From positions 142,290,001 through 142,354,000 of the forward strand of contig JANJGN010000001.1 of assembly GCA_026770705.1 (NCBI GenBank): DNA of 64,000 bases, given 5' to 3'. Made by a program: the position numbers and the translations under genes. The DNA comes from Isurus oxyrinchus. Its lineage: Eukaryota. Of this stretch, positions 11,015 through 60,394 are shown one piece after another. The number at the start of each line of letters is the position of its first letter. Position 1 is the stretch's first letter. The notes under the pieces were generated by a model. The model was not told the origin of the DNA. It worked only from the letters and a program-made list of their open reading frames with translations, and searched no databases.

Positions 11015-11181
11015 CTTTGGGAAAAGATGTCTCTGTATGGGCTGCCATGCTGGAGAGCGATGCCATATCCTCGGTCTGCCAGGGTGTTGCCAACAGTGAA
11101 TAAAGAGCAGTCGGGGCTGTTCAGGGCAATGTATTCCAACACTGCCACGTCCCAAACGAAGGCATAATTCCCAGCTTTCAC
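11015..11181 (-). CDS. GRID2: Glutamate receptor ionotropic delta-2(-like), next exon (S2 lobe; equivalent to GRID2 exon 14)
   Basis: Reverse strand reads ctctaactcgcag|GTG AAA GCT GGG AAT TAT ... TCC CAA AG|gtagga = [55 protein letters not shown](R). 167 bp, joins in frame to the 48020-48215 exon. The ORF track misses it (shows another frame). Confidence 0.95.
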
Positions 11182-13690: not shown

Positions 13691-13979
13691 AAGAGTATGT
13701 GAATGGATATTGAATTGTAACTAGTCTAATTGTAAGAGGTTAAGAGGAATGTAACAGAAATTCCTCTGGACCCACTGCTGGCTAGTGCTGTCTCAGGACT
13801 GCCATTTTGTGCTGACATTAGAGGCCCGAAGCCTGTGGTAAAATCCTAACTGTTAATTCTGTTCCTTCCTCCACAAATGCTGCCAGACCTGCATTTTCTT
13901 GTTTTATTGCAGTTACTAAGTTGGATTATAACTTGATGCAATATAGCTTTTCAACTGAATCAGTTCAAAATTCTGTGTC

Positions 13980-20885: not shown

Positions 20886-22129
20886 GAAGCAAATCATCTG
20901 CCCACTTGGGAGCATGCAAGGAGTGGTCCATTGTCACCTTTAAAATGAGTTTGTTATACTGTGGTTTCCGCTATCTTTTCAGGTGGATGTAAAAGATCCC
21001 ATGGCATCATTCCAAGATGTTGGAAGGGACTTTTCTTAGGAGTCCAATCCAACATCTATCCCTCAACTGAAAGCAGTAAACACAGATCGAATGAGGATTT
21101 ATCACATCGATGTTTGTGGGACTTCATTGTATGCAAATTGGCTGTTGTGATTTCTTACATTACAATACTACACTTCAGGACATGAAAGTCATGATATAAA
21201 TCCAAGTTTTCTTTTGGTAATGCATTCATAGGGTTAACTTGGCTTATGAAATCAGACAGAAGGCTTCCATGGCAATAAGTGAAACTTAAAGTATCATGAA
21301 GAGGAACACTGCGCAGATCTATTAATAACATGAAGCATGGCTGCATCCAGATTGCTGGTTCAATTTACGTGAGAAAGTTTGTGAAATCACTGCACCTACC
21401 CCTGTGGGTAATGAGTCAACAGTGGCTGTGGATCATTGATTGGAAAGCGTTTCTGAGAGAAGTGAAAGACCTCTTCATGTGAACAGCTTATCTGTTCACA
21501 GGCTGCATTTCAATGCACATCATTCTCACTATGCCCTTGATCACAATATTTTAAACTCTCCCCTTTTTGCGCCATTTTTTTACTACTGATTTCTGCTCTT
21601 AAAAAACACACATCAATCCATGGACTTTCTTAATGATACAACTGGTGCTTGGGATCTGAAGCTTAATTTATGTTTGTTTGACGGATAGCCACTAAGGGCA
21701 CTAGAGCAAGTCCCCAGCAGCTACTTTGGTTTTGGATTTGGAAATCCATTTATCTAATCCCCCAGAACCTTTTAAATGGAACTTTGAAGTTTGATAACGG
21801 TGAACTGATGGGGTGTGCTCTGTTGATTTAGATGGAGATTATCGTGCGTCTGATGATATTCTGAATCTCAGAATTGGATTGGAGCTGTTCTGACAAGAAA
21901 TAGACAGATTGGTTATTTAGAGGACAAGCTAGTTAACTAGTGGACAGGCTGGTTAACCAGTGGACGGGCCAGTTATTCCTTGAACAATTTAATTTTTCAG
22001 TGAACTGAGTTCCCAAAATGTAGATTCAACACCAGACATCTATTTTTTAAGAATATTTAAAAAAAAAATATGATTTGAGTGTTTTCAATGTATTTGAATC
22101 ATCTGCAGAGCCAACCACTGTAATTCCAG

Positions 22130-22339
22130 AATAAAAATGAGAAGTTCTGGGGGTACTCAGCAAATCTGGAGGCATCTGTGGAGAGAGAAACAGAGTTTTC
22201 GTGAAGAAGAGTCATATTGGACTTGAAACGTTAACTCTGTTCCACTATCCACAGAAGCTGCCAGACCTGCTGAGTATTTCCAGCACTTTCTGTTTTTATT
22301 TCAGATTTTCAGCATCTGCAGTGTTTTGCTTTCATCTCA
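22130..22339. mobile_element. Fold-back Penelope pLTR-tail unit with a degenerate hammerhead
   Basis: Arm 22130-22198 is the reverse complement of about 22233-22300. Centre gtgaagaagagtc-atattg-gactt-gaaacgttaact. Perfect 9-bp direct repeat TAATTCCAG at 22121-22129 and 22340-22348. Confidence 0.75.
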
Positions 22340-23821
22340 TAATTCCAGTCATTTTTTTTCTCTTTCCAACACAGATTTGTGTGTAGTGGGAAATTAAGTT
22401 AAGCATCAACGCTCTGTTTCTTGAATAATAGCTTAAACTGTAAAGCAATTTTGGGATATTTGGGGCAGGACTTATTGCAATGAGATAAATGTTATTTCTC
22501 GCTCTGTTGATGTCTTGCACTTGTGTCTAAGTGAAGGCAGCACTATTAGGCTCTTGATGCTGCCCAAATGGTCAATTAAATAAACAAGCTGATGATAGAA
22601 ACTTTAGATAGGACACCATCTGACTTGTCTTCAAATGGTCCCAAAGAATCTTTTGCCAATGTCTTAATTGATTACATTGTTAAGGTTTAATGACAATAAT
22701 ATTGTTAAACAGGTGATGGGTATTTGCACACTTTTAAATGGGGATAGCTGGGACACTGGGCGCAGCAGTAGATTTGACTGTGAGCTAATTCAATAAACTT
22801 GCTCCAGCAAAGAAAGCAGCTGTTTCTTTGTTCACTTTATCAACCCCGTGTGGATCTGGGTGACATCTTTCATTCCGATCAAAGCAAGGTACCATTTTCA
22901 CAATTTACCTCAAAGGGCCTGTCTCTGATAGTGCAGCACTGTCTCCATGAAACGTGAACTCATAACCTTCAGACTTATTGGTAAGCATGCTACCAACTAC
23001 CTGAATGCTGTTTCTTTACCAGTAGTGTGACTGTCTAAATATAACGCTTTTTAAATACCAATCCCCTTGTGCAGCAACTGTTGGCACAAGAACAGACTTT
23101 AATGATAGTGAGCTGAGCTTTTGAAGAGATAAATCCTATGAGTATTTGAATTGTGAACTTGGATCCAGATTAGTGGAACCTTTCAACGTTTGCATGTGAT
23201 GAGGAGCGATCTGAAGTGAACAATATTTGAAAATCAAAGCACCGAGAGAGCTCTGTTTCAGGCCTCTTACAATCTCATTTCCTGAAATATGGTTTACTGG
23301 GAAAACCTGTAGTGTTTTGAAAATTCTTATTCTGCACTTTTGCGAATTTGTGACCACGCTCACTCTTTCTGCTCATTAAAAAACAAACCTTTCTTAGCGT
23401 GGGTGAAGCTCGAAACTTAGAAATTAACACTGAATTAACAGAAGAAGCAGCTGCTGGGGTTGGAGAAGGGAAATACGAAGTAAGAAGGAAGCCAGTGCTT
23501 TCACAGGACTTTGCATTGACATATGCATCTTATTGTCAGCTGTGGCTCAGTGCTAAGCAGCATCATCTCTGGGCTGCATTTTACCTGCCCCTGTTGGGTG
23601 TGTTTTCAGTGGGGGGGCCATGTAAGATTGGGCAGGTTCCCACCACACCACCTTCCCGCCCTCCCCGAGCTTACCCCCATAATGTGGGGCGGGTGGGAGG
23701 GTAGGTGGGTGCTGAAATCGGCAGGCTTGCCATATTTAAATAGATAATCAAGGATCAAGGAGGCTTGTTACCTGATAATCTGCTACCCATGCCATAATAC
23801 ATTTGGCATGGGAACCTGGGT

Positions 23822-39005: not shown

Positions 39006-41892
39006 CTTGTCCTATCCATAGTAAAAAGTCACGGAACTTTGCCATGGTTCAGTGAATAATCATCAAGGCAGAGAACTCAAGAAGAAGATAACTGGTTTGC
39101 TGGAAGTTACTATTTCCCATGTAACTGTTGAGGTGGTAAGAATGGGACCTCCTTTGGGATTCCTGTAGTAAGAATTGGAGGAGGATGAGCAAAATCAAGA
39201 AAAACCGGTGTGACTATACTTCATGCATTATGTACACATGGACCCTTATCCTAGGACCCCCGCTTAATGACCCAGACATTCCTTCTTTAGCATGTCTTCA
39301 GCAAAGTCTCTTGGGTACCAACTTGCAGGCAACTCATACCAAAGAGGCCACTTTTGCTATGGGTGTGCACTGAATCTTCTTCGACTGGATCCTTCCAAAT
39401 CCAGGACCAGTGAAGCACACAGGATTTTCTTCCCAGTAAAATGAACTGATGGACAGTAAGTCCAATGACTGTTCTGACCACTTCACCTAGAGAGCCCTGA
39501 TGTGCGAAACTGCGAACTGGGAAGATGATTCCCGTAAAATCCATCCCGAAGTGAGGATATCATTAGCATCACATTTAATGACCTTTTATGGTCAACAGCC
39601 TGTCAACATTTGATATCTAAATACACACTTGAAATAAGCCACTTTGGGGAGATACGGGAAGATTGTGGGCAAAAAATGGGACTTTCAGTACTGCCTTCAA
39701 GGCCAAAAGATTGGAAGAGATACAACTACCATCTCTAAGTTTTGATACAGCCATTAATGTGATTTCCACAGGATTTCATCAGTCTTATACAACAGCTTAA
39801 ACTTCAACTGCATCTTTAACCGCAAAAAAATTTCCCAAAAGCATTTCATAAAGTAGAAGAAGAGTTAAAGGTGATGGGCAAATAGGTGGTATAGGAAAGG
39901 AAGAGGTTAAAGGATGGAGGAGTTGACAGAGAGGGTTCCAGAGCGTGGACTGAGAGCTGCTCCATTCACAGTGGAGTATGGGGGGTTGGATGTTGACTAC
40001 AGTGCATGAAGTGCAGAATCAGGGCCAGTGAAGGCTGCTCAATAAGGGAGGGAACAAGGCCACTGGGGGGGCAGGGTGCTGTAGGGAAGAATTTTGAAAT
40101 CGCATCATTGGAGGATGATCAGAATTCAACTTCGGCCAAGGCAGATCTGATGCGGAGACGAATAGAATGCAGGATAGGGTGGGGATTAGAGTTTTGGATG
40201 AATTTCAATTTGTGAACAGCAGAACACAGGAATCCAGCAAGGAGAACTTTGGAATTATGGAGGTTGGAAGGGGCAAAGTATGATGAATAGTTTCAGTAAC
40301 TGTTCTCGTAGTGAGATATGGGTGAAAGCAGGCTGGGTTGAATGCTGAAATAGGTGCTCTAAGTGGTGGTTAGCATGTGTAATCAAAGAGGGCACCAAGG
40401 TCAGTACTCTCAAATGTAGGCTGTGCAGTCGGCTTGTGAGGGGACTAGAGTTAGGACCAAAGAACCAAGGTTTTTAATGGCATTGAACAGGATGACCTCA
40501 GTCTTATGATACCGAGTTGACTTGTTAGCTAAAAGCAGATAATTGAGGAGTGAAGAATTATGAAGGAGAGGTAGGTCAGTCCGTTGACTTTAGAAAGCTG
40601 ATCACCAGACCTATGAATGGTGTCATCTAGCACAGCTAACAAGAAGAATGAAACCTTTAATCGTAACTGAGGTGACTTTGCAAGGGCAGGAGGAGGAGCT
40701 TTTGAGGGCATTGTGCTAATTTTAGTCTGTTGATAGTGCAAAACTTGTGTATTGTTGAAAAAAGAGACATATTGAAGCTTTTTGTCTTGTACTCACCAGA
40801 ACATTCGCAGGAATACCAAATGTAAAGAACAATTTACACTTCAGGAGAAGTGAGTGCTGATTGGTTGACAAGTGGACTCTGATTGGCATTGCCATGGAGA
40901 ATGCACCAGTTAACTGATGACTGACAGTTAACTGACAAGCTTTGTTTCTTTTCAAACCAGGCAGGTTGCCACTGATTGGTCAGGGCATTGCACTGGGGAA
41001 TGAACCAGAGCATGGCCGTCACCTATTTTGGTCAGTTGAAACAGGTGCAGTGTGTGTACATGTTCTTTCTGTCTGCAAATAGCAGGATTCTGTGTATGAA
41101 TATACATGGTTTCTAGCACGTGTAAGTGGGCCACACTGTGAGTCTGACTGATAATCTTAAATTGGTTGTCAGGAGTTCTTACAGCATTCAGGGTTGTTTA
41201 TCAAAACGTTGTCAATTGTGGAAACACATCTAATATTGGACACAGTGTTTTGAGTTTTGCAAGCATGGACTGGCTGGGTACAGTCTGTACCTTGCCTATT
41301 GTGAACAGTCGAAGAGACATGCTGTTTGATACGATCCACCAGTCATTGGAATGTACTGACATTCTGCCTATCACACAAATGAGTGTGATTTATGAATTTC
41401 AGAGCCGATGTGAAGTTAGGTACGATTTTTAAAAAATCATTCATGGGATGTGGGCATTGCTGGCTGGGCCAGCATTTATTGCCCATCTGTAATTGCCCTT
41501 GAGAAGGTGGTGGTGAGCTGCCTTCTTGAACCGCTGCAGTCCATGTGTTGTAGGTACACCCACAGCGCTGTTAGAGATGGAGTTCCCCAGTCTTCGCAAA
41601 TGTGAATGTTTCCTTCACCATACATGTGCAAAACTTGCTCAAAACTGGATGTAGCAACTTGCCTAACCATTTGGTTAATTTATGTTGTACAGAACTGGTC
41701 ATAGATAAGATAGGGCACAAAAGGACATCACTTTTGTGTGTCTTGGGCAACCTATGCATACACGGGCGCAGTGAGCCTTGAGGACGAACCCTATCATATA
41801 TATCACCAGACAGCTCTTTGCGCTTCCACAAGTCCAACAAACATTTTTCAGGTCCAATCAGAGTCAACCTGCCTGGTTTAAACTTAAACAAA

Positions 41893-42130
41893 GATAAAAG
41901 CAAAATATTGCGGATGCTGGAAATCTGAAATAAAAACAGAAAATGCTAGAAAAACTCAGCAGGTCTGACAGCATCTATGGAGAGAGAAACAGAGTTAACG
42001 CTTTGAGTCCATATGACTCTTCTTTAGAGTTCTGAAGAAGTCATAAGGACTCAAAACATTAACTCTGTCTCTCTTTCCACAGATGCTGTTAGATCTGCTG
42101 AGTTTTTCCAGGATTTTCAGTTTTTATTTG
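41893..42130. mobile_element. Fold-back Penelope pLTR-tail unit with two opposed degenerate hammerheads
   Basis: About 100-bp arms inverted around 42025-42030. Flanked by aacttaaacaaa (41881-41892) and aagttaaacaaa (42131-42142). Confidence 0.75.
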
Positions 42131-42289
42131 AAGTTAAACAAAAGTTGGCATTTAACTTTCAGTCATCAATTAACCGGTGCATTCTCCATGGCAACGCCTC
42201 TATTAATTAGAGTCCATTTGCCAGCCAATCAGCATTTTCTTCTCATGAAGTATAAATTGTTGTTCCCTTTACATTTGGTTTTCTTGTGA

Positions 42290-42325
42290 ATGTCCTGATG
42301 AGTGCAAGGCAAAAAGCTTCGACAT
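42290..42325 (+). ncRNA. Minimal type-I hammerhead ribozyme motif, probably inactivated (G12A)
   Basis: AUGUC-CUGAUGA-GUgcaagGC-AAAA-AGCU-UC-GACAU. Helix I AUGUC/GACAU and palindromic AAGCUU helix III. A more decayed copy lies on the - strand at 40769-40804. Confidence 0.6.
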
Positions 42326-43539
42326 GTCTCTTTTCAGTTATACTCATATGCTAATTTTGTTGGGACAGGAAGGAGTGAAACCAGGCTAGAACAGTGCAAG
42401 GGAGGTGAATGGTGGAGGGGAAGAGAGTGAATGACAATGTAGAAAGATCAAAAAGGATGAAAAGGGATGGTGCACTATGGTTGCAGCCATGGAGAGTATC
42501 ACTGGCGTCTGACCAAGAGATGTTCTAGGTGTTGCGTGCAGAGTCAAAATTAGATTGAAGATATGCTTTGGCAAGAGTGGTGATAAGCTGTAAAATTTAC
42601 CTCAAACCAAACACCCTTTGGGTTGGGTAATTGACTTTAATATTTGGAATATGCAAGCATTGGCATTCCTCTTAACATATTCTAGCCACCTCCGCAGTTT
42701 ATTAAAATGTTCAGTGCTGATATTTCAAAGAAAGCAGTTCTGTGATACAACATAAGTCAAGAGCAAATGCATAAAATATGCATACAAAATAATATAGCTC
42801 TCGGCCCTACTGAATGAGCAGCATCATAAATAATGTATTGTCAGTCATGCCTGTCATTTGCTGATATGCTGTGCATCATTCACTTTTAATAGTACAATGT
42901 ACCTAATAACAGAGGACAAACTTGGCAGTATACACATGTGTTAACTTGAAAGCCCTTTGAGTTAAGCAACAACCATGAAGTAATAACTGAACTAACAAAA
43001 TGATACAGGACTGGCGAAAAACCTAAGATTCTCAAACTCTCCACTCACTCTGGAAACACCGAGCTATGCTGACTTCCATCCTCATCCTCCAAGAGGGTTT
43101 AAAATTCAGCTGCTTAGCAGATGTAAAGGCTCCACATGTTGGGCTGAATTTTACAGTTCCCTGGGGACAAGGTTGTGGAGGGGGCTGTGGTAGGGGTGGG
43201 AGGAATCCTGTAAAATCTTTAAGGAAGTGCTGGGGGGTTGTGGGTTAGTGGGGGGATGGTGGGAGTGGGCCTGTCCTTTCCCACCAGCATGTCATAAGGT
43301 AGTGGACAGTCCTTCTGCCCAGAAGCCAACTGAATGACTTGAGCGGCCAATTAACGGCTGCTTCCTGTCCTCACTGGCATTTTAACAGTGGTGGGTGGAC
43401 TCTCTGCCGAATGAACTTTGGCGGCCTCTCAATGGGCTTGGTGGGTGGTTTGCTGGGGGGAAGAGTGAGATCGTCTGTTGGGGGGCAAGAGTGAGGGTTT
43501 GGGGATTGGATGAAGTGGTGCCAGAGCCCACTAGGCCAT

Positions 43540-44889: not shown

Positions 44890-47640
44890 TAATAGAAGAA
44901 TCTTGAAATGATGCGTTGCAAAGGGAGGTGCTTCGGGCCATTGTGGCTGTGCTGACTATTTGAGAGAGCTGTTCAATTAATCCCACTCACTGCTATTTCC
45001 TTGTAGCTCTGTATTATTTTCTTTTTAAGTGTTTATCCAATTTCCTTTTGAAAGTTATTAATAAATCTGCTTCAACCGGCCTTTCAGACCATGCAGCTTA
45101 GTTTACAACAACACTGGTTGCTGACCCTCCTTCCACCACAAAGTGTTTCTCCTCATTTACTCTATCAAAACCACTCCACAACCTTTATCAAGTCTCCTCT
45201 TAATCTTCTTTGCTCTAAGGAGAACGACTCCAGCCTCCCAACTCTCTCCACATGACTGAAGTCCATTCCAGCAAATCTCTTCTGCACCCTTCATTCTGAG
45301 AAAAAAACTTTTTCACACAACCAGTGGTTCGGGTCTGGAATGCGCTGCCTGGAAGTGTGGTGAAGGCAGGTTCAATCGAGGAATTCAAGAGGGCATTAGA
45401 TGATTATTTGAATAGAAACAATGGGATACGGGGAAAAGGCAGAGCCATGGCAATAGGTCATAATGCTCATTTGGAGAGCTGGTGCAGATACAATGGGCTG
45501 AATGGCTTCCTTCTGTGCCATTAAAATTCTGTGAAACTGTGAGCCTCTCCAAGGCCTTTGCACTCTTCCTAGAAGCTTACCTTGATGAATGCTCTGAGAC
45601 ACTGCACCTGAGAAAAATGTCTAGGTTAAAAATCCCAAATTGATGTGTATGTCCAATGAGAATGTAGCAATTACTCATTGTGAGCAGTAGCTGGGGACCT
45701 TGGTGTTCTATGACATAAGAAACATAAGAAATGGAAAGAGAATAAGGCCATTTGCCCTTCGAGCCTGCTCCATCATTCAAGATTCTCGAATAGAATAGGA
45801 TTATGGAATGGTTACTGCAACAAAAGGAGGCCATTTGGCCTATCATCTCTGGGCTGGCCCTCTGAAGGGGCATTCCACCAAGTGCCGCTCCCCTGCCTTT
45901 TCCTGTAGCCCTATAAATTTTTCCTTTTCAGGTAATGATCCAATTCCCTTTTGAAAGCCTCAGTTGGTCCTGCCTCTACCACACTCTCAGGCAGTGCATT
46001 CTAGACCCTAACCCTTTTGGAACAGTTTCTCCCTATTTACACTATCCAGACGCCTCATGATTTTGAACATCTCTTTCAAATCAATTCGGCTCTATGGAGC
46101 CAGACAAAACACACAATTAATTAACCATGGCTGATCTTCAGCATCAACTCAATTTTCCTGGCCTATCCCCATATCCCTTGATTCCCTTCGTGTGCAGAAG
46201 CTATCGACCTTAGTCTTGAATATACTAGTGAACATCCTCAGCTCACTGCGGTAAAGAATTCCAGAGAGTCACAACCCTCTGAGTGAAGAAATATTTCCTC
46301 ATCCCAGAACTAAAATGCCGACCCTTTATCCTGAGCTGATGACCCCTAGTTTTAAGCTCTCAGGTATGGGAAACAGCATCTGCCTTGTCCAGAGAGTACA
46401 AGCCCACTCTACCCAATCTGTCTTCATAGGACAGCCCCCTCGTCCCAATTAACTGCATGTTTATACCCATCTTCTCTGGTAGTTACTGCAGCCAATTGAT
46501 AGAATCCCCAATAACTTTCATTCCTTACTTGTCTCTGCATTTCATATGAAACAGTTAGGATGGCTTTTGCTCTTTGAAACAATTGTTTCTAAAGCTATAA
46601 TTCAGGTCAGCAAACTGTTTTTTTTCCTCTCTTATCCAAAAACTACCCCTCAGTTCAAAAATCTTCTAATGTACTTAAATTGTCAACCAAACAAAGAATG
46701 TTAGGTCAGTGTTAAGGGTTGGTTTGCATGAAGCTTATGAATCAGGATGAGAAAGGCATCATAGAGACGAGTGGATAAAAATAAATAAATAATATTTTCC
46801 TAAACTGCTGTTGGAAACGAATGACAGTTTAGTAAAGATTAAGCCAAGGGAGGTACATTCCAGGTTGCTGGTTACAAAGTTCTATAGAACTCACAAGCAC
46901 AGAAACAATCCCCTCCAAGCCACTCACCATCCTGAATTGGCAATATATCGCTGTCCCTTCACAGTCGCCGGGTTAAAATCCTGGAACTCCCTCCCCGCAA
47001 CTAAGTAATCATGGCTGATCTTCAACGTCAGCTCAATTTTTCTGCCATATGGACTGAAGCAGCTCAAGAAGGCAGCTCACCACCACCTACTCAAGGGCAA
47101 TTAGGGACGGGCAATAAATGCTGGGCCCAGCCAGCGATGCCCACATCCCATGAATGAATTAAAAAAAATTGCCATTCAGCCCAACAGATCATTGCTGGAG
47201 TTTATGTTCCACTTGAGTCTCCTCTCAGCCCTTCTTCACCTAAACCTATCAACACACCCTGTTAATTCCTTGCTCCCTCATGTGGTTATCAAGCTCCTCC
47301 TTACATATGTCTATGCTATTCACCTAAAATACTCTCTGTGGTAGCGAGTTCCACATTCAAACCACTTTCTGATTAGAGAGATTTCTCCTGAATTTACGAT
47401 AAGTTTTATTAGTGACTATCTTATATTTATGGCCCTCATTTCTTGTTCACAAGTGCAAATATCGTCTCCACCTCTATCCTATCAAACCCTTTTATAGTCT
47501 TAAATACCTCTCTCAGATCACCCCTCAGTCACCTCTGTTCTAGAGAACAGATCAACAGCTTGTTCAATCTTTCCTGATTGGTATCAAGTCTCAGTTTTGG
47601 TATCATTCTAGTAAATCTTCTCTGCATCTCCAATGTACTG
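44890..47640. mobile_element. Cluster of nested CR1/L2-clade 3' fragments in both orientations
   Basis: Repeated aggccattcggccc / ataagaaacataagaaat / tggaatgcgctgcc motifs. Confidence 0.6.
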
Positions 47641-48019: not shown

Positions 48020-48215
48020 CCTTCGGATGCCGTCCTGGGAATCCTTCACCGAGGTTTCTGTGCCGTTACCTCTGTTGATCATCCTCCACATTTGGGCGTA
48101 CATATTGTCTCTCTCAAAGGGGTTCATTCCTTTGACTCGAACATGCTCATACACAGCCGACTCCATCACCGTGCCATACGGTATGTCTGTTTGCTTGGAA
48201 AGATCTTGCAGGGAC
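48020..48215 (-). CDS. GRID2: Glutamate receptor ionotropic delta-2(-like), internal exon (start of S2 lobe; equivalent to GRID2 exon 13)
   Basis: Translates [65 protein letters not shown], which matches GluD2 rather than GluD1. Acceptor ttcttctcaactcaaag|G and donor AGG|gtacag. 196 bp, phase 2 to 0. Confidence 0.93.
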
Positions 48216-50019: not shown

Positions 50020-50625
50020 TACTTGCACTTCTTTCAATTCAGTACACAGTATTCACTGCTCACAATGTGGTCTGCTCTACACTGGGGAGACCAAATGCTG
50101 ATTGGGTAATCGCTTAGTGGACCATCTCCGTTCAGTCTGCAAGCATAACCCTGAGATTCTGGTTGCCTGTCATTTTAATTCTCCACCTACTCACATCTCT
50201 GTTCTCGGCCTACTGCCGTGTACCGATGAAGCTCAACACAAGCTCAAACACAACATAACCTCGTCTTTTGATTAGGTACTTTGCCACATTCTGGACTCAA
50301 CATTGGGTTCAATAATTTCAGCCTCTTCCCCCTTTTTTTTTTCTCTTTTCTTTGCATGTCTTGGTCATAATCCTTTTGTCCCCCTGCTTTTGTTATCAGG
50401 TGGTAGCTGTTCATTATTCTGCCATTCACACCTCCTCTGGACACACCTTTTGTTTCTTTATTATGTTCCATTATCTTTGGCTCTGCACAACCAATGCTTC
50501 TGTCATTTAATGCCTCTATTCTTCTTTTTCTACCCTTCCCCATTTCACCTGCTTACATTTACATTTTTAACTTTTCCCAGTTCTGATGAAAGGTCATTGA
50601 GCTGAAACATTAACTCTGTTTCTCT
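50020..50625 (+). mobile_element. Older degenerate Penelope (Neptune-type) 3' fragment: GIY-YIG remnant + pLTR
   Basis: IHCSQCGLLYTGETK, homologous to the end of the 51023 ORF. The tail continues at 51014-51024, 53372-53400 and about 53645-53675 after nested insertions. Confidence 0.8.
50579..50615 (+). ncRNA. Degenerate minimal hammerhead motif of the older Penelope
   Basis: AGUU-CUGAUGA-A-AGGUC-auu-GAGCU-GAA-ACAU-U-AACU. Core boxes are intact, but helix II has a mismatch and the ACGU palindrome is broken. Confidence 0.55.
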
Positions 50626-50629
50626 TTCT

Positions 50630-51005: not shown

Positions 51006-51022
51006 TCCCCCATCTCTCCATA

Positions 51023-52816
51023 GACAAGGGTGGTGCTGTTGTTGTCTGGCGCACTGACCTCTACCTCGCGGAGGCTGAGCGTCAACTCGCAGACACTTCC
51101 TCCTACCTCTCCCTGGACCATGACCCCACCACTGAACATCAAGCCATTGTTTCCAGGACTGTCACTGACCTCATCTCCTCTGGGGATCTCCCTCCCACAG
51201 CTTCCAACCTGATAGTCGCCCAACCTCGGACGGCCCGCTTCTATCTCCTACCCAAAATCCACAAACAGAACTGCCCTGGTAGACCGATCGTCTCAGCTTG
51301 CTCCTGCCCCACAGAACTCATTTCTCGTTATCTTGACTCCCTTCTCTCTCCCCTTGTCCAGTCCCTTCCCACCTATATCCGTGATTCCTCTGACACCTTA
51401 CGTCACATCAACAATTTCCAGTTCCCTGGCTCCAACCGCTTCCTCTTCACCATGGACGTCCAATCCCTCTACACCTCCATCCCCCACCAGGATGGTCTGA
51501 GGGCCCTTAGCTTCTTCCTCGAACAGAGGCCCGAACAATCCCCATCCACCACTACTCTCCTCCGTCTGGCTGAACTTGTTCTCACGTTGAACAATTTCTC
51601 CTTCAACTCCTCTCACTTTCTCCAAATAAAAGGTGTGGCTATGGGTACCCGCATGGGCCCCAGCTATGCCTGTCTCTTTATGGGGTACGTGGAACATTCC
51701 TTGTTGCAGTCCTACCCCGGCCCCCTTCCACAACTTTTTCTCCGGTACATCGATGATTACTTCGGTGCCGCTTCATGCTCTCGTCGGGACTTGGAAAAAT
51801 TTATTAATTTTGCTTCCAATCTCCACCCCTCCATCATTTTCACGTGGTCCATCTCTGACACTTCCCTTCCCTTCCTTGACCTCTCTGTCTCAATCTCTGG
51901 TGATAGACTGTCCACCAATATCCACTACAAACCCACCGACTCCCACAGCTACCTCGACTACAGCTCCTCACACCCCGCTTCCTGTAAGGACTCCATCCCA
52001 TTCTCCCAGTTCCTTCGCCTTCGTCGCATCTGTTCCGATGATGCTACCTTCAAAAACGGTTCCTCTGACATGTCCTCCTTCTTCCTTGACCGAGGTTTTC
52101 CACCCACGGTCGTTGACAGGGCCCTCAACCGTGTCCGGCCCATCTCCCGCGCATCCGCCCTCACGCCTTCTCCTCCCTCCCAGAAACATGATAGGGTCCC
52201 CCTTGTCCTCACTTATCACCCCACCAGCCTCCCCATTCAAAGGATCATCCTCCGCCATTTCCGCCAACTCCAGCATGATGCCACCACCAAACACATCTTC
52301 CCTTCACCCCCCTTATCGGCATTCCGTAGGGATCGCTCCCTCCGGGACACCCTGGTCCACTCCTCCATCACCCCCTACTCCTCAACCCCCTCCTATGGCA
52401 CCACCCCATGCCCACGCAAAAGACGTAACACCTGCCCCTTCACTTCCTCTCTCCTCACCGTCCAAGGGCCCAAACATTCCTTTCAAGTGAAGCAGCATTT
52501 CACTTGCATTTCCCCCAACTTAGTCTACTGCATTCGTTGCTCCCAATGTGGTCTCCTCTACATTGGAGAGACCAAACGTAAACTGGGCGACCGCTTTGCA
52601 GAACACCTGCGGTCTGTCCGCAAGAATGACCCAAACCTCCCTGTCGCTTGCCATTTTAACACTCCACCCTGCTCTCTTGCCCACATGTCTGTCCTTGGCT
52701 TACTGCATTGTTCCAGTGAAGCCCAACGCAAACTGGAGGAACAACACCTCATCTTCCGACTAGGCACCTTACAGCCTTCCGGTCTGAATATTGAATTCAA
52801 TAACTTTAGGTCGTGA
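51023..52816 (+). CDS. Penelope reverse transcriptase + GIY-YIG endonuclease (uninterrupted, 5'-truncated)
   Basis: DKG, FYLLPKIHK..PGRPIVS, MDVQSLYTSI, GVAMG, RYIDD, LPFLD, linker CPRKRRNTC, NLVYCIRCSQCGLLYIGETKR...RFAEH, GLN. The ORF-track N-terminus (50891-51022) is read-through of SINE sequence. Confidence 0.92.
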   Translation, partial: DKGGAVVVWRTDLYLAEAERQLADTSSYLSLDHDPTTEHQAIVSRTVTDLISSGDLPPTASNLIVAQPRTARFYLLPKIHKQNCPGRPIVSACSCPTELISRYLDSLLSPLVQSLPTYIRDSSDTLRHINNFQFPGSNRFLFTMDVQSLYTSIPHQDGLRALSFFLEQRPEQSPSTTTLLRLAELVLTLNNFSFNSSHFLQIKGVAMGTRMGPSYACLFMGYVEHSLLQSYPGPLPQLFLRYIDDYFGAASCSRRDLEKFINFASNLHPSIIFTWSISDTSLPFLDLSVSISGDRLSTNIHYKPTDSHSYLDYSSSHPASCKDSIPFSQFLRLRRICSDDATFKNGSSDMSSFFLDRGFPPTVVDRALNRVRPISRASALTPSPPSQKHDRVPLVLTYHPTSLPIQRIILRHFRQLQHDATTKHIFPSPPLSAFRRDRSLRDTLVHSSITPYSSTPSYGTTPCPRKRRNTCPFTSSLLTVQGPKHSFQVKQHFTCISPNLVYCIRCSQCGLLYIGETKRKLGDRFAEHLRSVRKNDPNLPVACHFNTPPCSLAHMSVLGLLHCSSEAQRKLEEQHLIFRLGTLQPSGLNIEFNNFRS

Positions 52817-53371
52817 GCTCCCTCCCCCATCCCCACCCCCTTTCTGTTTCCCCCTTTTTTTCCCCCCTTTTTTTTCCCAATACATTTTATAGATTTTTCT
52901 TTTCCCACCTATTTCCATTATTTTTAAATATTTTAAAATCTTTTATGCTCCCCCCACCCCCACTAGAGCTGTACCTTGAGTGCCCTACCATCTATTCTTA
53001 ATTAGCACATTCGTTTAGATAATATCACCAACTTTAACTTTAACACCTATGTGTTCTTTTGCACCATTGTCACTGACATCTTTTGATGATCTGCTTCTAT
53101 CACTGCTTGTTTGTCTACACAAGCACCTCTGTCTCTCTCTCTCTCTCACCGCCCCCCCCCCCCCCCCTCCACACACACACACACACACACCTTAAACCAG
53201 CTTATATTTCAACTCTTTCTTGGACTCGAAATCAAGTTCTGTCGAAGGGTCATGAGGACTCGAAACGTCAACTCTTTTCTTCTCCGCCGATGCTGCCAGA
53301 CCTGCTGAGTTTTTCCAGGTAATTCTGTTTTTGTTTTGGATTTCCAGCATCCGCAGTTTTCTTTGTTTTCA
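51025..53371 (+). mobile_element. Young 5'-truncated Penelope-like retroelement (Neptune-type), copy 1
   Basis: RT+GIY-YIG ORF and pLTR with hammerhead. TSD TCTCCATAGA at 51015-51024 and 53372-53381. Confidence 0.93.
53235..53273 (+). ncRNA. Minimal type-I hammerhead ribozyme (variant core CUGUCGA)
   Basis: AGUU-CUGUCGA-A-GGGUC-augag-GACUC-GAA-ACGU-C-AACU. Predicted cleavage after GUC at 53269. Confidence 0.7.
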
Positions 53372-54759
53372 TCTCCATAGATATTGCCTGACCTGTTGAC
53401 CTGATTGTGCTTTATGAGCATATGATGAAAAGGTCTAGGCCTCATTTGGAAATTGAACCATTTACACTACTAGTTGTGTGCAGGCTCATTTGCTACCCTC
53501 ATCACAATCAGTCTCCAAGGACCACCTACCAATATGGAATGGAGAAACAAGCCATGGGTAAAGTGAATAAACAACCAGTGTAATCGGGTTGACATCCTGC
53601 TTGCTTATTCTCAGAAACCCAGGCTGAAGGCCAAATCCATTGGACTGATTGATTTCCAGCATTTTCTGTTTTTAGACTTTTGTGTCTCTGGACTATTATG
53701 GGTAACTTTGTTTTCAAATATGTGAAGAATTAATGTTGTTCGGAAGGTCTTCATGATATTGGAGACTGGGAAGGGAAGCATGAGTCTGGATTGAATGAAC
53801 TGAAGGATACAAGAGGGTGAGGGAGGTTCTATACAGAAATAAACTCATAACCAGAGATAACAATGAAGAACTCATGAAGCAAACAATTAAACACAACTTA
53901 AGGAATTACTGCATCATTCACAGGGGGTATACCCAAGAGAAGGTCAACAGGAGGAATTTTACGCCTTTAAGGTTAACTCCAGGAAGAAGGTTTCACCTGC
54001 TGTAATCGTTTTCCGATTGACAAGAAGCTATTAAAGTGGATTTAGTGCAAGTAAGTGTAAACAGAAAAATGTCACTGCGGCAGAGTTCTAGGAACGAGTG
54101 GGATCAATGAGGGTTAATGAGGCAGTGGGGGTGCGGTGGTATGGATGCAGTGGAGGCATTTAGGCAGGATTTGAACAAGAAGAGTCAGATTGCAGGAAAT
54201 GAACTATCTTTTCACATTCTTGTATTCTTATCACTGAATTGCAGTCTGATATTTTCTCAAAAATTGTGCAGTTGGCAACGTTCCAGAGATCACAAAGGTT
54301 CTAATTTGAAGGAATGTTGGTGACTGCATTGCTTTTAAGATCACTTCCGAAATGATTGCTTCCTTTTCAGCAGGCATCATTTAAAAGTCCAGGTACCTCT
54401 GGCACTTTACATTACCTTAAATAAGTAATTTCCTGTCAAACATAAAATTTAAATGAAGCTCTTCCCGAATGCTAGGCTGGAGAAATGCGAATTGTTAGAT
54501 TTACAAAACTGCAGATAGAAAGTGATGGTGAACAGCACATTGGGGGTGCTCCACTGGGGCCATTGTGCCCTTGGTTCTGGAATGGAGAGATAGCGTTTGA
54601 TGCTGGGCTTGTGTTCACCTGGAGACCGATGTTCTGATTCCTAAGCTCAATCTGTCCTATATCCCTCACTTTCACTGTGCATTACACCCGCCCAGTCCAC
54701 ATTTTCTACTCTGAGACTCAGAGCACCATCACTGCGGAGTGCTGCATAATGCAGTCTGT

Positions 54760-56859: not shown

Positions 56860-58359
56860 CTCATTTCTCGTTATCTTGACTCCCTTCTCTCTCCCCTTGT
56901 CCAGTCCCTTCCCACTTACATCCGTGATTCCTCTGACACCTTACATCACATCAACAATTTCCAGTTCCCTGGCCCCAACCGCTTCCTCTTCACCATGGAC
57001 GTCCAATCCCTCTACACCTCCATCCCCCACCAGCATGGTCTGAGGGCCCTTAGCTTCTTCCTCGAACAGAGGCCCGAACAATCCCCATCCACCACTACTC
57101 TCCTCCGTCTGGCTGAACTTGTTCTCACGTTGAACAATTTCTCCTTCAACTCCTCTCACTTTCTCCAAATAAAAGGTGTGGCTATGGGTACCCGCATGGG
57201 CCCCAGCTATGCCTGTCTCTTTATGGGGTATGTGGAACATTCCTTGTTGCAGTCCTACTCCGGCCCCCTTCCACAACTTTTTCTCCGGTACATCGATGAT
57301 TACTTCGGTGCCGCTTCATTCTCTTGTTGGGACTTGGAAAAATTTATTAATTTTGCTTCCAATCTCCACCCCTCCATCATTTTCACGTGGTCCATCTCTG
57401 ACACTTCCCTTCCCTTCCTTGACCTCTCTGTCTCAATCTCTGGTGATAGACTGTCCACCAATATCCATTACAAACCCACCGACTCCCACAGCTACCTCGA
57501 CTACTGCTCCTCACACTCCGCTTCCTGTAAGGACTCCATCCCATTCTCCCAGTTCCTTCACCTTCGTCGCATCTGTTCCTATGATGCTACCTTCAAAAAC
57601 GGTTCCTCTGACATGTCCTCCTTCTTCCTTAACCGAGGTTTTCCACCCACGGTCGTTGACAGGGCCCTCAACCGTGTCCGGCCCATCTCCCGCGCATCCG
57701 CCCTCACGCCTTCTCCTCCCTCCCAGAAACATGATAGGGTCCCCCTTGTCCTCACTTATCACCCCACTAGCCTCCGCATTCAAAGGATCATCCTCCGCCA
57801 TTTCCACCAACTCCAGCATGATGCCACCACCAAACACATCTTCCCTTCACCCCCCTTATCGGCATTCCGTAGGGATCGCTCCCTCCGGGACACCCTGGTC
57901 CACTCCTCCATCACCCCCTACTCCTCAACCCCCTCCTATGGCACCACCCCATGCCCACGCAAAAGATGTAACACCTGCCCCTTCACTTCCTCTCTCCTCA
58001 CCGTCCAAGGGCCCAAACACTCCTTTCAAGTGAAGCAGCATTTCACTTGCATTTCCCCCAACTTAGTCTACTGCATTCGTTGCTCCCAATGTGGTCTCCT
58101 CTACATTGGAGAGACCAAACGTAAACTGGGCGACCGCTTTGCACAACACCTGCGGTCTGTCTGCAAGAATGACCCAAACCTCCCTGTCGCTTGCCATTTT
58201 AACACTCCACCCTGCTCTCTTGCCCACATGTCTGTCCTTGGCTTGCTGCATTGTTCCAGTGAAGTCCAACGCAAACTGGAGGAACAACACCTCATTTTCC
58301 GACTAGGCACCTTACAGCCTTCCGGACTGAATATTGAATTCAACAACTTTAGGTCATGA
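56860..58359 (+). CDS. Penelope RT + GIY-YIG endonuclease (uninterrupted, 5'-truncated; in frame with upstream CR1 sequence)
   Basis: MDVQSLYTSI, RYIDD, CPRKRCNTC, VYCIRCSQCGLLYIGETKR. Confidence 0.9.
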   Translation, partial: LISRYLDSLLSPLVQSLPTYIRDSSDTLHHINNFQFPGPNRFLFTMDVQSLYTSIPHQHGLRALSFFLEQRPEQSPSTTTLLRLAELVLTLNNFSFNSSHFLQIKGVAMGTRMGPSYACLFMGYVEHSLLQSYSGPLPQLFLRYIDDYFGAASFSCWDLEKFINFASNLHPSIIFTWSISDTSLPFLDLSVSISGDRLSTNIHYKPTDSHSYLDYCSSHSASCKDSIPFSQFLHLRRICSYDATFKNGSSDMSSFFLNRGFPPTVVDRALNRVRPISRASALTPSPPSQKHDRVPLVLTYHPTSLRIQRIILRHFHQLQHDATTKHIFPSPPLSAFRRDRSLRDTLVHSSITPYSSTPSYGTTPCPRKRCNTCPFTSSLLTVQGPKHSFQVKQHFTCISPNLVYCIRCSQCGLLYIGETKRKLGDRFAQHLRSVCKNDPNLPVACHFNTPPCSLAHMSVLGLLHCSSEVQRKLEEQHLIFRLGTLQPSGLNIEFNNFRS

Positions 58360-58853
58360 GCTCCCTCCCCCATCCCCACCCCCTTTCTGTTTCCCCCTTT
58401 TTTTTCCCAATAAATTATATAGATTTTTCTTTTCCCACCTATTTCCATTATTTTTAAATATTTTAAAATCTTTTATGCTCCCTCCACCCCCACTAGAGCT
58501 GTACCTTGAGTGCCCTACCATCCATTCTTAATTAGCACATTCGTTTAGATAATATCACCAACTTTAACTTTAACAGCTATGTGTTCTATTGTACCATTGT
58601 CGTTGACATCTTTTGATGATCTGCTTCTATCACTGCTTGTTTGTCCACACAACCACACACCCCCCCACCTCTCTCTCTCTCTCTCTCTCCGCCCCCCACA
58701 CACACACCTTAAACCAGCTTATATTTCAACTCTTTCTTGGACTCGAAACCAAGTTCTGTCGAAGGGTCATGAGGACTCGAAACGTCAGCTCTTTTCTTCT
58801 CCGCCGATGCTGCCAGACCTGCTGAGTTTTTCCAGGTAATTCTGTTTTTGTTT
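56862..58853 (+). mobile_element. Young 5'-truncated Penelope-like retroelement, copy 2
   Basis: About 98% identical to copy 1 by eye. TSD CCTGATAATCT at 56851-56861 and 58854-58864. Confidence 0.93.
58752..58790 (+). ncRNA. Minimal type-I hammerhead ribozyme (variant core CUGUCGA), copy 2
   Basis: Identical to 53235-53273 except AACU>AGCU, which keeps helix I through a U-G wobble. Confidence 0.7.
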
Positions 58854-60394
58854 CCTGATAATCTACATCCCAGGGTACTATAGAAGGTGCCCATGGAAAT
58901 AGTAGATGTGTTGGTTGTCATCTTCCAGAATTCTTTAGATTTTGGAACAGTACCGGCAGATTGGAGGGTGACAAATGTAACCCCATTATTTAAAAAAGGA
59001 GAGAGGGGAAAAAACATCAAATTACAAATCAGTTAGCCTAACATCAGTAGGAGGGAAAACGCTAGAGCCTGTTATAAAGGATGTGATAACAGGACACTTG
59101 GAAATATCAACATGATTAGATACAGTCAACATGGATTTATGAATGGGAAATCGTGTTTGAAAAACCTACTGGAGTTTTTTGAGGATGTAACTAGCAGAAT
59201 AGATAAGGGAGAACCAGTGGATGTGGTGTGTTTGGATTTTCAGAAAGTTTTGATAAAGTCCCACATAGGAGGTTAGTTTGTAAAATTAGAGCACATGGGA
59301 TTGGAGGTAATATATTGGCATGGATTGGTTAGCAGACAGGAAACAGAGACTAGGAATAAATGGGTCTTTTTCATATGGCAAGTGGTGACTAGTCGGCTAC
59401 CACAGGGATCAGTGCTTGGGCCCCAACTATTCACAATATATATCAATGATATGGATGAAGGGACCAAATGTTATATTTCCAAGTTTGCCGATGACACAAA
59501 ACTTGGTGGGAATGTGAGCAATGAGGAAGGTGTTAAGAGGCTGCAAGTTGATTTACACAGGTTGAGTGAGTGGGCAAATATATGGCAGATGAAATATAAC
59601 ATGGATAAGTGTGAAGTTATCCACTTTAGTAGGAAAAACAGAATGGCAGAGTATTATTTAAATGGTGATAGATTGGGAAATGTTGATGTACAAAGGGATC
59701 TGGGTGTCCTTGTACACCAATCACTGAAAGCAAGCACGCAGATGCAGCAAGCAGTTACGAAGGCAAATGCTATGTTGGCCTTCATTGTGAGAGGACTTGA
59801 GTACAGGAGCAAGGATGTCTTACTGCAGCTGTACAGGGCCTTGGTGAGACCACACCTGGAGTATTGTGTGCAGTTTTGGTTTCCTTACCTAAGAAAAGAT
59901 ATACTTGCCATAGAGCAAGTGCAGCAAAGGTTCAGCAGACTGATTCTGGGGTAGCGGGATTGTCGTATGAGGAGAGATTGGGCCAACTAGGCCTGTATTC
60001 ACTGGAGTCTAGAAGAATGAGAGGGGATCTCATTGAAACATTTAAAATTCTGACCGGGATGGACAGACTGGATGCAGGGATGATTTTTCCTTTGGTTGGG
60101 GGTCTAGAACAACGGGTCACAGTCTGAAGATACATTTAGGAATGAGATGAGGAGAAACATCTTCACTCAGAAGAATTCTCTACCACAGCAGGCTGTAGAG
60201 GCCACATCACTGAATATATTAAAGAAAGAAATAGATTCCTGGACTGTGAAGGCATCAAGGAGTTTGGCGAGAGAGTGGGAGTATGATGTTGAGATGCAGG
60301 ATCAGCCATGATCATATTGAATGGCAGAGCAGGCTCGAAGGGCCGAATGGCCTACTCCTGCTCCTATTTTCTATGCTTTTACGTTTCTCACCCT

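Follow-up and report, generated by a model that had tools for sequence, protein, structure and literature searches.

A short fold-back unit in a GRID2-like intron, most likely a minimal PLE insertion with a decayed hammerhead

Described PLE insertions and hammerhead elements

The closest described counterparts of the unit studied here are insertions of EN+ Penelope-like elements (PLEs), as reported for Pen2a_Av (PMC3846280) and Penelope of D. virilis (PMC2377424) and outlined as a general scheme in PMC8557442. These insertions are reported to carry an inverted 5'-truncated copy at the 5' end, a 30-40-nt tail on one arm, a target-site duplication (TSD) of 8-10 bp around the whole and a palindrome at the junction. 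An inverted 5'-truncated copy combined with a 30-40-bp tail at one end is described as typical of PLEs (PMC8557442), and the Pen2a_Av copy of Adineta vaga shows an inverted pLTR, a 31-bp tail and a 9-bp TSD (PMC3846280). The palindromes at the inverted junctions have been interpreted as a sign of self-priming (PMC3846280), and inverted-repeat copies are reported to have arisen in Penelope-transformed flies (PMC3681739, PMC2377424). The protein of PAc, a Poseidon element of Anolis carolinensis, was reported to cut and extend both strands in vitro, starting at two internal sites that bound the tail; it prefers ATT and requires RNA located 3' of the start sites (PMC11167929).

Metazoan PLEs are also known for minimal hammerhead ribozymes (min-HHR). 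Hammerhead pairs are reported at 100-700 bp from each other on opposite strands, most solo motifs were ascribed to truncated PLEs, and single minimal motifs are reported to have given no cleavage (PMC4209133). In the PAc hammerhead, the change C3G abolishes cleavage (PMC11167929). Metazoan non-LTR retrozymes (PMC7229834; bioRxiv 10.64898/2026.07.22.740005) resemble our unit in being short, non-coding and PLE-derived, with a type-I hammerhead and a long TSD, but they are described as head-to-tail tandems with at least two ribozymes and circRNA, whereas the unit is a head-to-head monomer with one apparently dead core. Its identification as a non-LTR retrozyme was rejected on the grounds of the single core, the head-to-head arms and the lack of a tandem copy in the window. 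The inversions produced by twin or dual priming of L1 (PMC2837659) are similar in that both target strands prime and the inverted pieces lie within one TSD; however, the L1 pieces are reported to derive from separate regions of the RNA and to involve an internal deletion, while the arms of the unit overlap the same sequence. No ORF-less fold-back PLE unit or family was described for cartilaginous fish in the literature searched, repeat databases and most subscription papers being beyond its reach.

Structure and setting of the unit

The unit was analyzed within a 64-kb stretch of DNA, the whole of which is called the window hereafter, and comprises the following parts with its TSD.

22121-22129, + strand: left TSD, TAATTCCAG, adjoining the unit (position-aware null, 0.0002-0.005)
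22130-22339, 210 bp: fold-back unit made of inverted arm, hammerhead, sense arm and one-sided tail, with a 9-bp TSD around the whole
22130-22197, - strand: inverted tail-less 68-nt arm, bounded by the short PLE end and by the complement of the base that follows the predicted cleavage site
22198-22201, + strand: inversion junction TTCG (4 nt), read from the sequence and the alignment
22201-22232, + strand: decayed minimal type-I hammerhead core with G at position 3 (motif definition from PMC4209133)
22233-22300, + strand: sense pLTR arm of 68 nt, with homology to the 3' ends of ORF-bearing PLEs in the window
22301-22339, + strand: 39-nt PLE tail, on one arm only and without a pairing partner
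22340-22348, + strand: right TSD, TAATTCCAG, directly after the tail end

The alignment of the inverted arm with the reverse complement of the sense arm showed 52 identical positions out of 68. The final 6 nt of the inverted arm (22192-22197) also constitute the 5' strand of hammerhead stem I. The TTCG at the junction is not assignable to a single origin among untemplated bases, a remnant of the inverted core and later mutation. In EN+ PLEs, the pLTR end and the tail can encode the beginning of the ORF; here an open frame spans arm and tail, with no match among 10 named relatives or in the protein database. As RNA, the unit folds back with a stability z of -7.98 on the + strand and -7.67 on the - strand, and none of the 200 shuffles was equally stable on either of them. 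Perfect two-copy 9-mers are ordinary in this region (of 19 families of direct repeats within 1.5 kb around the unit, 7 are of this type), so the position of the 9-mer at the unit boundaries was tested instead. Random position pairs placed a perfect 9-mer at the two boundaries with a probability of 0.0002 (slop of 2 nt) to 0.0026 (slop of 10 nt), and a null with a sliding 210-bp spacing gave 7, 18, and 49 cases out of 9029 at slops of 2, 5, and 10, respectively.

A sequence-only reading had proposed a 210-bp fold-back with a perfect 9-bp TSD, which is confirmed by the boundary position null and by the fold on both strands. Its description of the unit as a tail and an inverted copy around one hammerhead-like center is refined in that the arms are unequal (22301-22339 is unpaired) and the hammerhead is decayed. 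Read as their reverse complement, positions 22118-22129 agree with the tail over its first 12 nt at 7, 7, and 9 of 12 positions, so that the left boundary could reflect a slightly degenerate arm or priming microhomology. The target site 22118-22129 is nearly palindromic and similar to the start of the PLE tail, a part reported as required for endonuclease recognition in D. virilis (PMC11167929). Further into the left flank, 17 nt (22092-22108) show 82% identity in direct orientation to positions 22305-22321 of the tail, probably by chance. A scan of bacterial and archaeal genomes with a 22-nt arm word returned one match, whose similarity extended over just 22-25 nt and which was treated as a chance hit.

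The hammerhead-like motif occurs as a single copy in the loop of the unit and only on the + strand. Its core box (22201-22207) is followed by an extra base, a 5-bp stem II (22209-22213/22220-22224) and GAAA; stem III is loopless and palindromic, and cleavage is predicted between 22232 and 22233. The succession of stem I, core box, extra base, stem II, GAAA and stem III is that of the PLE minimal hammerhead, with which the unit shares the extra base before stem II, the loopless palindromic stem III and a short native stem I (PMC4209133). It departs from that model by the G at position 3, the G-U closing pair and a stem I extended by the 68-bp arm. The catalytic core (C3-G8, G10.1-C11.1) is not intact, as position 3 is a G (or follows from a 1-nt insertion) and position 11.1 is a U, so that G-U replaces the G10.1-C11.1 pair. 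The ribozyme is predicted to be inactive because its position 3 is a G and C3G kills the PAc hammerhead, and it would require a partner to fold. Rfam models gave no match at the gathering score in the 64-kb window, and none of the 11 weak matches around the unit was a hammerhead; those to miRNA precursors (26.6 and 21.8 bits versus a cut-off of 90) were rejected as generic hairpin matches. The end of the inverted arm falls exactly on the predicted cleavage site and could be a trace of run-off on cleaved RNA, although this reading is confounded because the final 6 nt of the arm natively form the 5' strand of stem I. According to PMC11167929, PLE RNA-seq contained no reads ending at the hammerhead cleavage site, and cleavage was dispensable in vitro.

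The unit is located in a 37-kb intron between two consecutive GluD2-like exons on the minus strand, the borders of which were set by splice sites read from the sequence.

48020-48215, - strand: GRID2-like exon preceding the host intron; GluD2 leads the PDB matches (E=5.5e-31, GluD1 having 8.4e-18)
11015-11181, - strand: GRID2-like exon following the host intron; GluD2 leads the PDB matches (E=1.8e-30, GluD1 having 2e-24)

These flanking exons bear out the location in a GRID2 intron claimed from the letters of the locus, and the long hairpin expected in the GRID2 pre-mRNA agrees, as a prediction, with the fold beyond chance on both strands. The pre-mRNA would hold the hairpin of the unit but only the antisense of the ribozyme, which would not form there because it is encoded on the opposite strand. 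Read on the sense strand of GRID2, the left arm at 22176-22197 (minus) presents a pyrimidine tract ending in CAG, which resembles a 3' splice site and would be buried in the hairpin.

Related elements in the window

Searches of the window with the unit and with a profile of its arms revealed a second fold-back and two ORF-bearing PLEs, given below together with the empty site of the fold-back; remnants were found at 13852, 50578, and 53652.

41893-42130, - strand: second fold-back of the same subfamily, with two decayed hammerheads back to back, a 36-nt tail and a 9-12-bp TSD
40760-40979, - strand: empty paralogous site of the second fold-back, an inverted paralog of its flanks in which the TSD word occurs once, with no insert
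51025-53375, + strand: PenA, a 5'-truncated PLE with an open RT and GIY-YIG frame, a hammerhead, a long end with tail and a 10-bp TSD
56862-58854, + strand: PenB, a 5'-truncated PLE with an open RT and GIY-YIG frame, a hammerhead, a short tail-less end and an 11-bp TSD

The sense arm (22233-22300) is identical to PenA at 54 of 66 positions and to the long arm of the second fold-back at 59 of 68. By these alignments, both fold-backs belong to one subfamily, distinct from PenA and PenB (~80% identical), and no ORF-bearing copy of that exact subfamily was found in the 64-kb window. The protein of PenA matches RVT_1 with 33.5 bits, above the cut-off, and GIY-YIG with E=0.0006, just under the cut-off. 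The closest named relatives of the window PLE protein are from sharks and rays, with 65-75% identity (5 of 120 matches listed), and the host is on this basis probably a cartilaginous fish. The open RT-EN frames of PenA and PenB are 96% identical over 502 aa and look young. The same variant of the hammerhead core, having U at position 6, occurs in both elements (53239-53269 and 58756-58786). PenA was seemingly inserted in an older pLTR remnant (51013-51024 and 53372-53400), the putative empty site agreeing with the arm in 25 of 31 positions (E=0.0015 against the profile).

The second fold-back, whose hammerheads are separated by a 4-nt spacer and whose own arms are identical at 61 of 70 positions, was inserted into one arm of another PLE family. 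Judging from its flanks, the region at 40760-40979 can serve as an internal empty-site control for this kind of unit, not for the 22130 locus; no other copies of the flanks 21700-22129 and 22340-22900 were present within the window, and so there is no empty paralog for the unit itself. The different family, with long inverted arms, occupies 40760-42334 and makes a third inverted PLE structure in the window. It includes a hammerhead-like motif (42295-42320) and an RT-like fragment (41574-41891, minus) with ~30% identity to the PenA protein.

TSDs were identified at four of the six loci examined, with lengths of 9, 9-12, 10, and 11 bp, and none was found at the decayed remnants 13852 and 50578. 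The first of these is a decayed solo arm (13850-13908) whose start lies no more than ~3 nt from the position of predicted cleavage and whose other end is close to the short boundary. The second belongs to an older PLE remnant (50021-50628) with an endonuclease-end fragment (60% identity to PenA), a UTR and a hammerhead-like motif, interrupted by another repeat at ~50626. Two opposite fragments of ~200 bp at 45326-46013 are 71% alike and unrelated to the PLE arm profile.

The tail-less ends of the left arm of the unit, of the short arm of the second fold-back and of the non-inverted PenB align within 1 nt, and the tails at the long ends measure 39 nt in the unit, 36 nt in the second fold-back and 40 nt in PenA. 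The ends of these elements thus fall at two positions, matching the two reverse-transcription start sites reported for PLEs. As in PAc, the ends are one tail-length apart, ATT is present in the target and a hammerhead lies just upstream, whereas the accessible text of PMC11167929 does not describe fold-back products. The unit presents the features of EN+ PLE insertions, namely, homology to the 3' pLTR of RT and GIY-YIG elements, an inverted 5' copy, a 39-nt one-sided tail and a 9-bp TSD; it differs from the described ones in having neither ORF nor upstream pLTR and in that its arms, of 68 and ~110 nt, meet at the hammerhead. It is most likely the published PLE insertion shape in its smallest form, from which the ORF between the arms is gone. 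The interpretation in the sequence-only reading is partly supported: integration as a single event is backed by the positioned TSD, by the presence of TSDs (9-12 bp) at four of six loci and by the empty paralog of the second fold-back, and truncation plus inversion during Penelope reverse transcription corresponds to an architecture already described for PLEs.

Routes to the fold-back and what it may record

We give about an even chance to the reading that the segment at 22130-22339 is a single, one-off and dead-on-arrival product of the PLE RT/GIY-YIG protein. The PLE endonuclease would have cut the two strands of an AT-rich site, with the nicks 9 bp from each other as suggested by the TSD. 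In the order of priming that follows, which like the joining is reconstructed around the ends, TSD and junction positions seen at the locus, one 3' end would have primed at the outer start site of the element RNA, producing the long arm and the tail, and the other at the inner start site, producing the oppositely oriented tail-less arm. Two start sites and priming by two strands come from in vitro work on another PLE and would apply to the unit by analogy. Both cDNAs would have reached the hammerhead after ~70-110 nt and halted, the first at the 5' edge and the second at the predicted cleavage site or vice versa; their 3' ends, complementary via stem I, could have been joined there. The copy, which has no upstream pLTR, would then have decayed, its only likely activity being that of a long intronic hairpin in GRID2 pre-mRNA.

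The comparison of the arms is at odds with one aspect of this proposal, since arms made from one RNA should start identical and decay equally, and the left arm departs from this. It has 9 private changes, the other arms having 3, 2, and 2 (P = 0.0005; only columns with a 3-of-4 majority were counted), an excess that would need two different template RNAs or another process. A rival route is a one-off PLE product formed by fold-back self-priming at the stem-I inverted repeat or by deletion from a two-hammerhead unit, which we regard as unlikely. The second fold-back contains a 6-nt stem-I word twice (41991 and 42026), and a deletion between the two would give the layout of the 22130 unit bar 3 extra bases, but two further small changes at the junction would be required. 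Self-priming is the way in which PMC3846280 reads the palindromes at PLE junctions; however, it also predicts arms identical at birth and, taken alone, does not account for an inverted arm that stops at the tail boundary of PenB, unless an extra nicking step is added. The junctions of the two fold-backs differ, both being at hammerhead edges. Fold-back priming and later deletion would yield this junction equally well, and the mechanistic routes are inseparable at one locus. Priming microhomology was rejected as the general rule: it is seen at the left flank of the 22130 unit (7-9 of 12 positions) and is absent at the second unit and PenB (2-4 of 12).

Another possibility, also offered by the sequence-only reading, is a non-autonomous fold-back family, in which transcripts of a master hairpin would be put back into the genome in trans by the PLE protein. 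We consider it rather improbable, even if two units of one subfamily (210 and 238 bp) lie within 64 kb, pLTRs are reported to suffice for mobilization in trans in a rotifer (PMC3846280), and short non-autonomous Penelope elements are mentioned in butterflies (PMC6685494) and algae (PMC8557442). The discriminating signal for a family is shared arm-specific letters and not the position of the junction, which would recur without a family if it were set by the hammerhead edges, as in both units. In 3 of 68 columns, both arms of one fold-back agree against both of the other, while a single column separates long from short arms; this and the different junctions argue against a family. The arm tree (58/74) supported only one of its three inner branches, the one joining PenA and PenB. 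Changes of A to G on the hammerhead strand make up 5 of the 9 private left-arm changes, a pattern such as would arise from a hairpin RNA edited before reverse transcription, but the excess is not robust: its P value goes from 0.0003 to 0.35 depending on the assumptions, and three of the changes are adjacent, in a place where the alignment is ambiguous. Moreover, PAc requires RNA beyond its start sites, and the unit stops at the RT start site, so that this requirement, if it extends to the unit, would count against a family; it has no upstream pLTR, its inner start region would be locked in the hairpin, and its lone hammerhead has no partner. The more specific proposal that ORF-less fold-backs form a mobile family of their own in cartilaginous fish, with a hairpin RNA that has a hammerhead in its loop, is A-to-I edited as double-stranded RNA and is re-inserted by the PLE protein, and that the end at 22197 records cleavage in vivo, seems to us quite improbable.

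Two independent and adjacent PLE insertions in opposite orientations, accompanied by a chance 9-mer, would fit the higher divergence of the left arm. PLEs do enter older pLTRs, as in the PenA empty site (25 of 31), and the region of the left 9-mer resembles the start of the tail (7-9 of 12). Yet the right 9-mer begins exactly after the tail end and does not belong to the element in either PenA or the second unit, the 9-mer has a chance probability of 0.0002-0.005, and an inner TSD is absent at the junction. Both arms of the unit also share an A in column 44 and a C in column 54 against all four other arms, and we hold this explanation to be very improbable. That the unit is a MITE of a cut-and-paste DNA transposon is scarcely credible: it is short and non-coding, with an inverted repeat and a 9-bp TSD, but its right end, with the 39-nt tail, has no terminal inverted repeat, TSD length is variable (9-12 bp), and the arms share homology with the 3' ends of RT and GIY-YIG elements. 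The homology and the one-sided tail largely refute the MITE reading.

Taken as a single locus, the unit is of minor import, a decayed intronic retrotransposon scar whose architecture is already known and which is most likely an ordinary, dead, minimal PLE insertion. The formation of inverted ends in PLEs and the cleavage of their hammerheads in vivo are stated as open in PMC8557442, PMC11167929 and PMC4209133. Short fold-backs record both priming sites and both stopping points in ~200 bp, and two of them occur in 64 kb; a census of fold-backs in a shark or ray genome could address the two questions computationally. The fold-back hairpins could also be a source of double-stranded RNA, and inverted Penelope copies are reported to match siRNAs in transgenic flies (PMC3681739).
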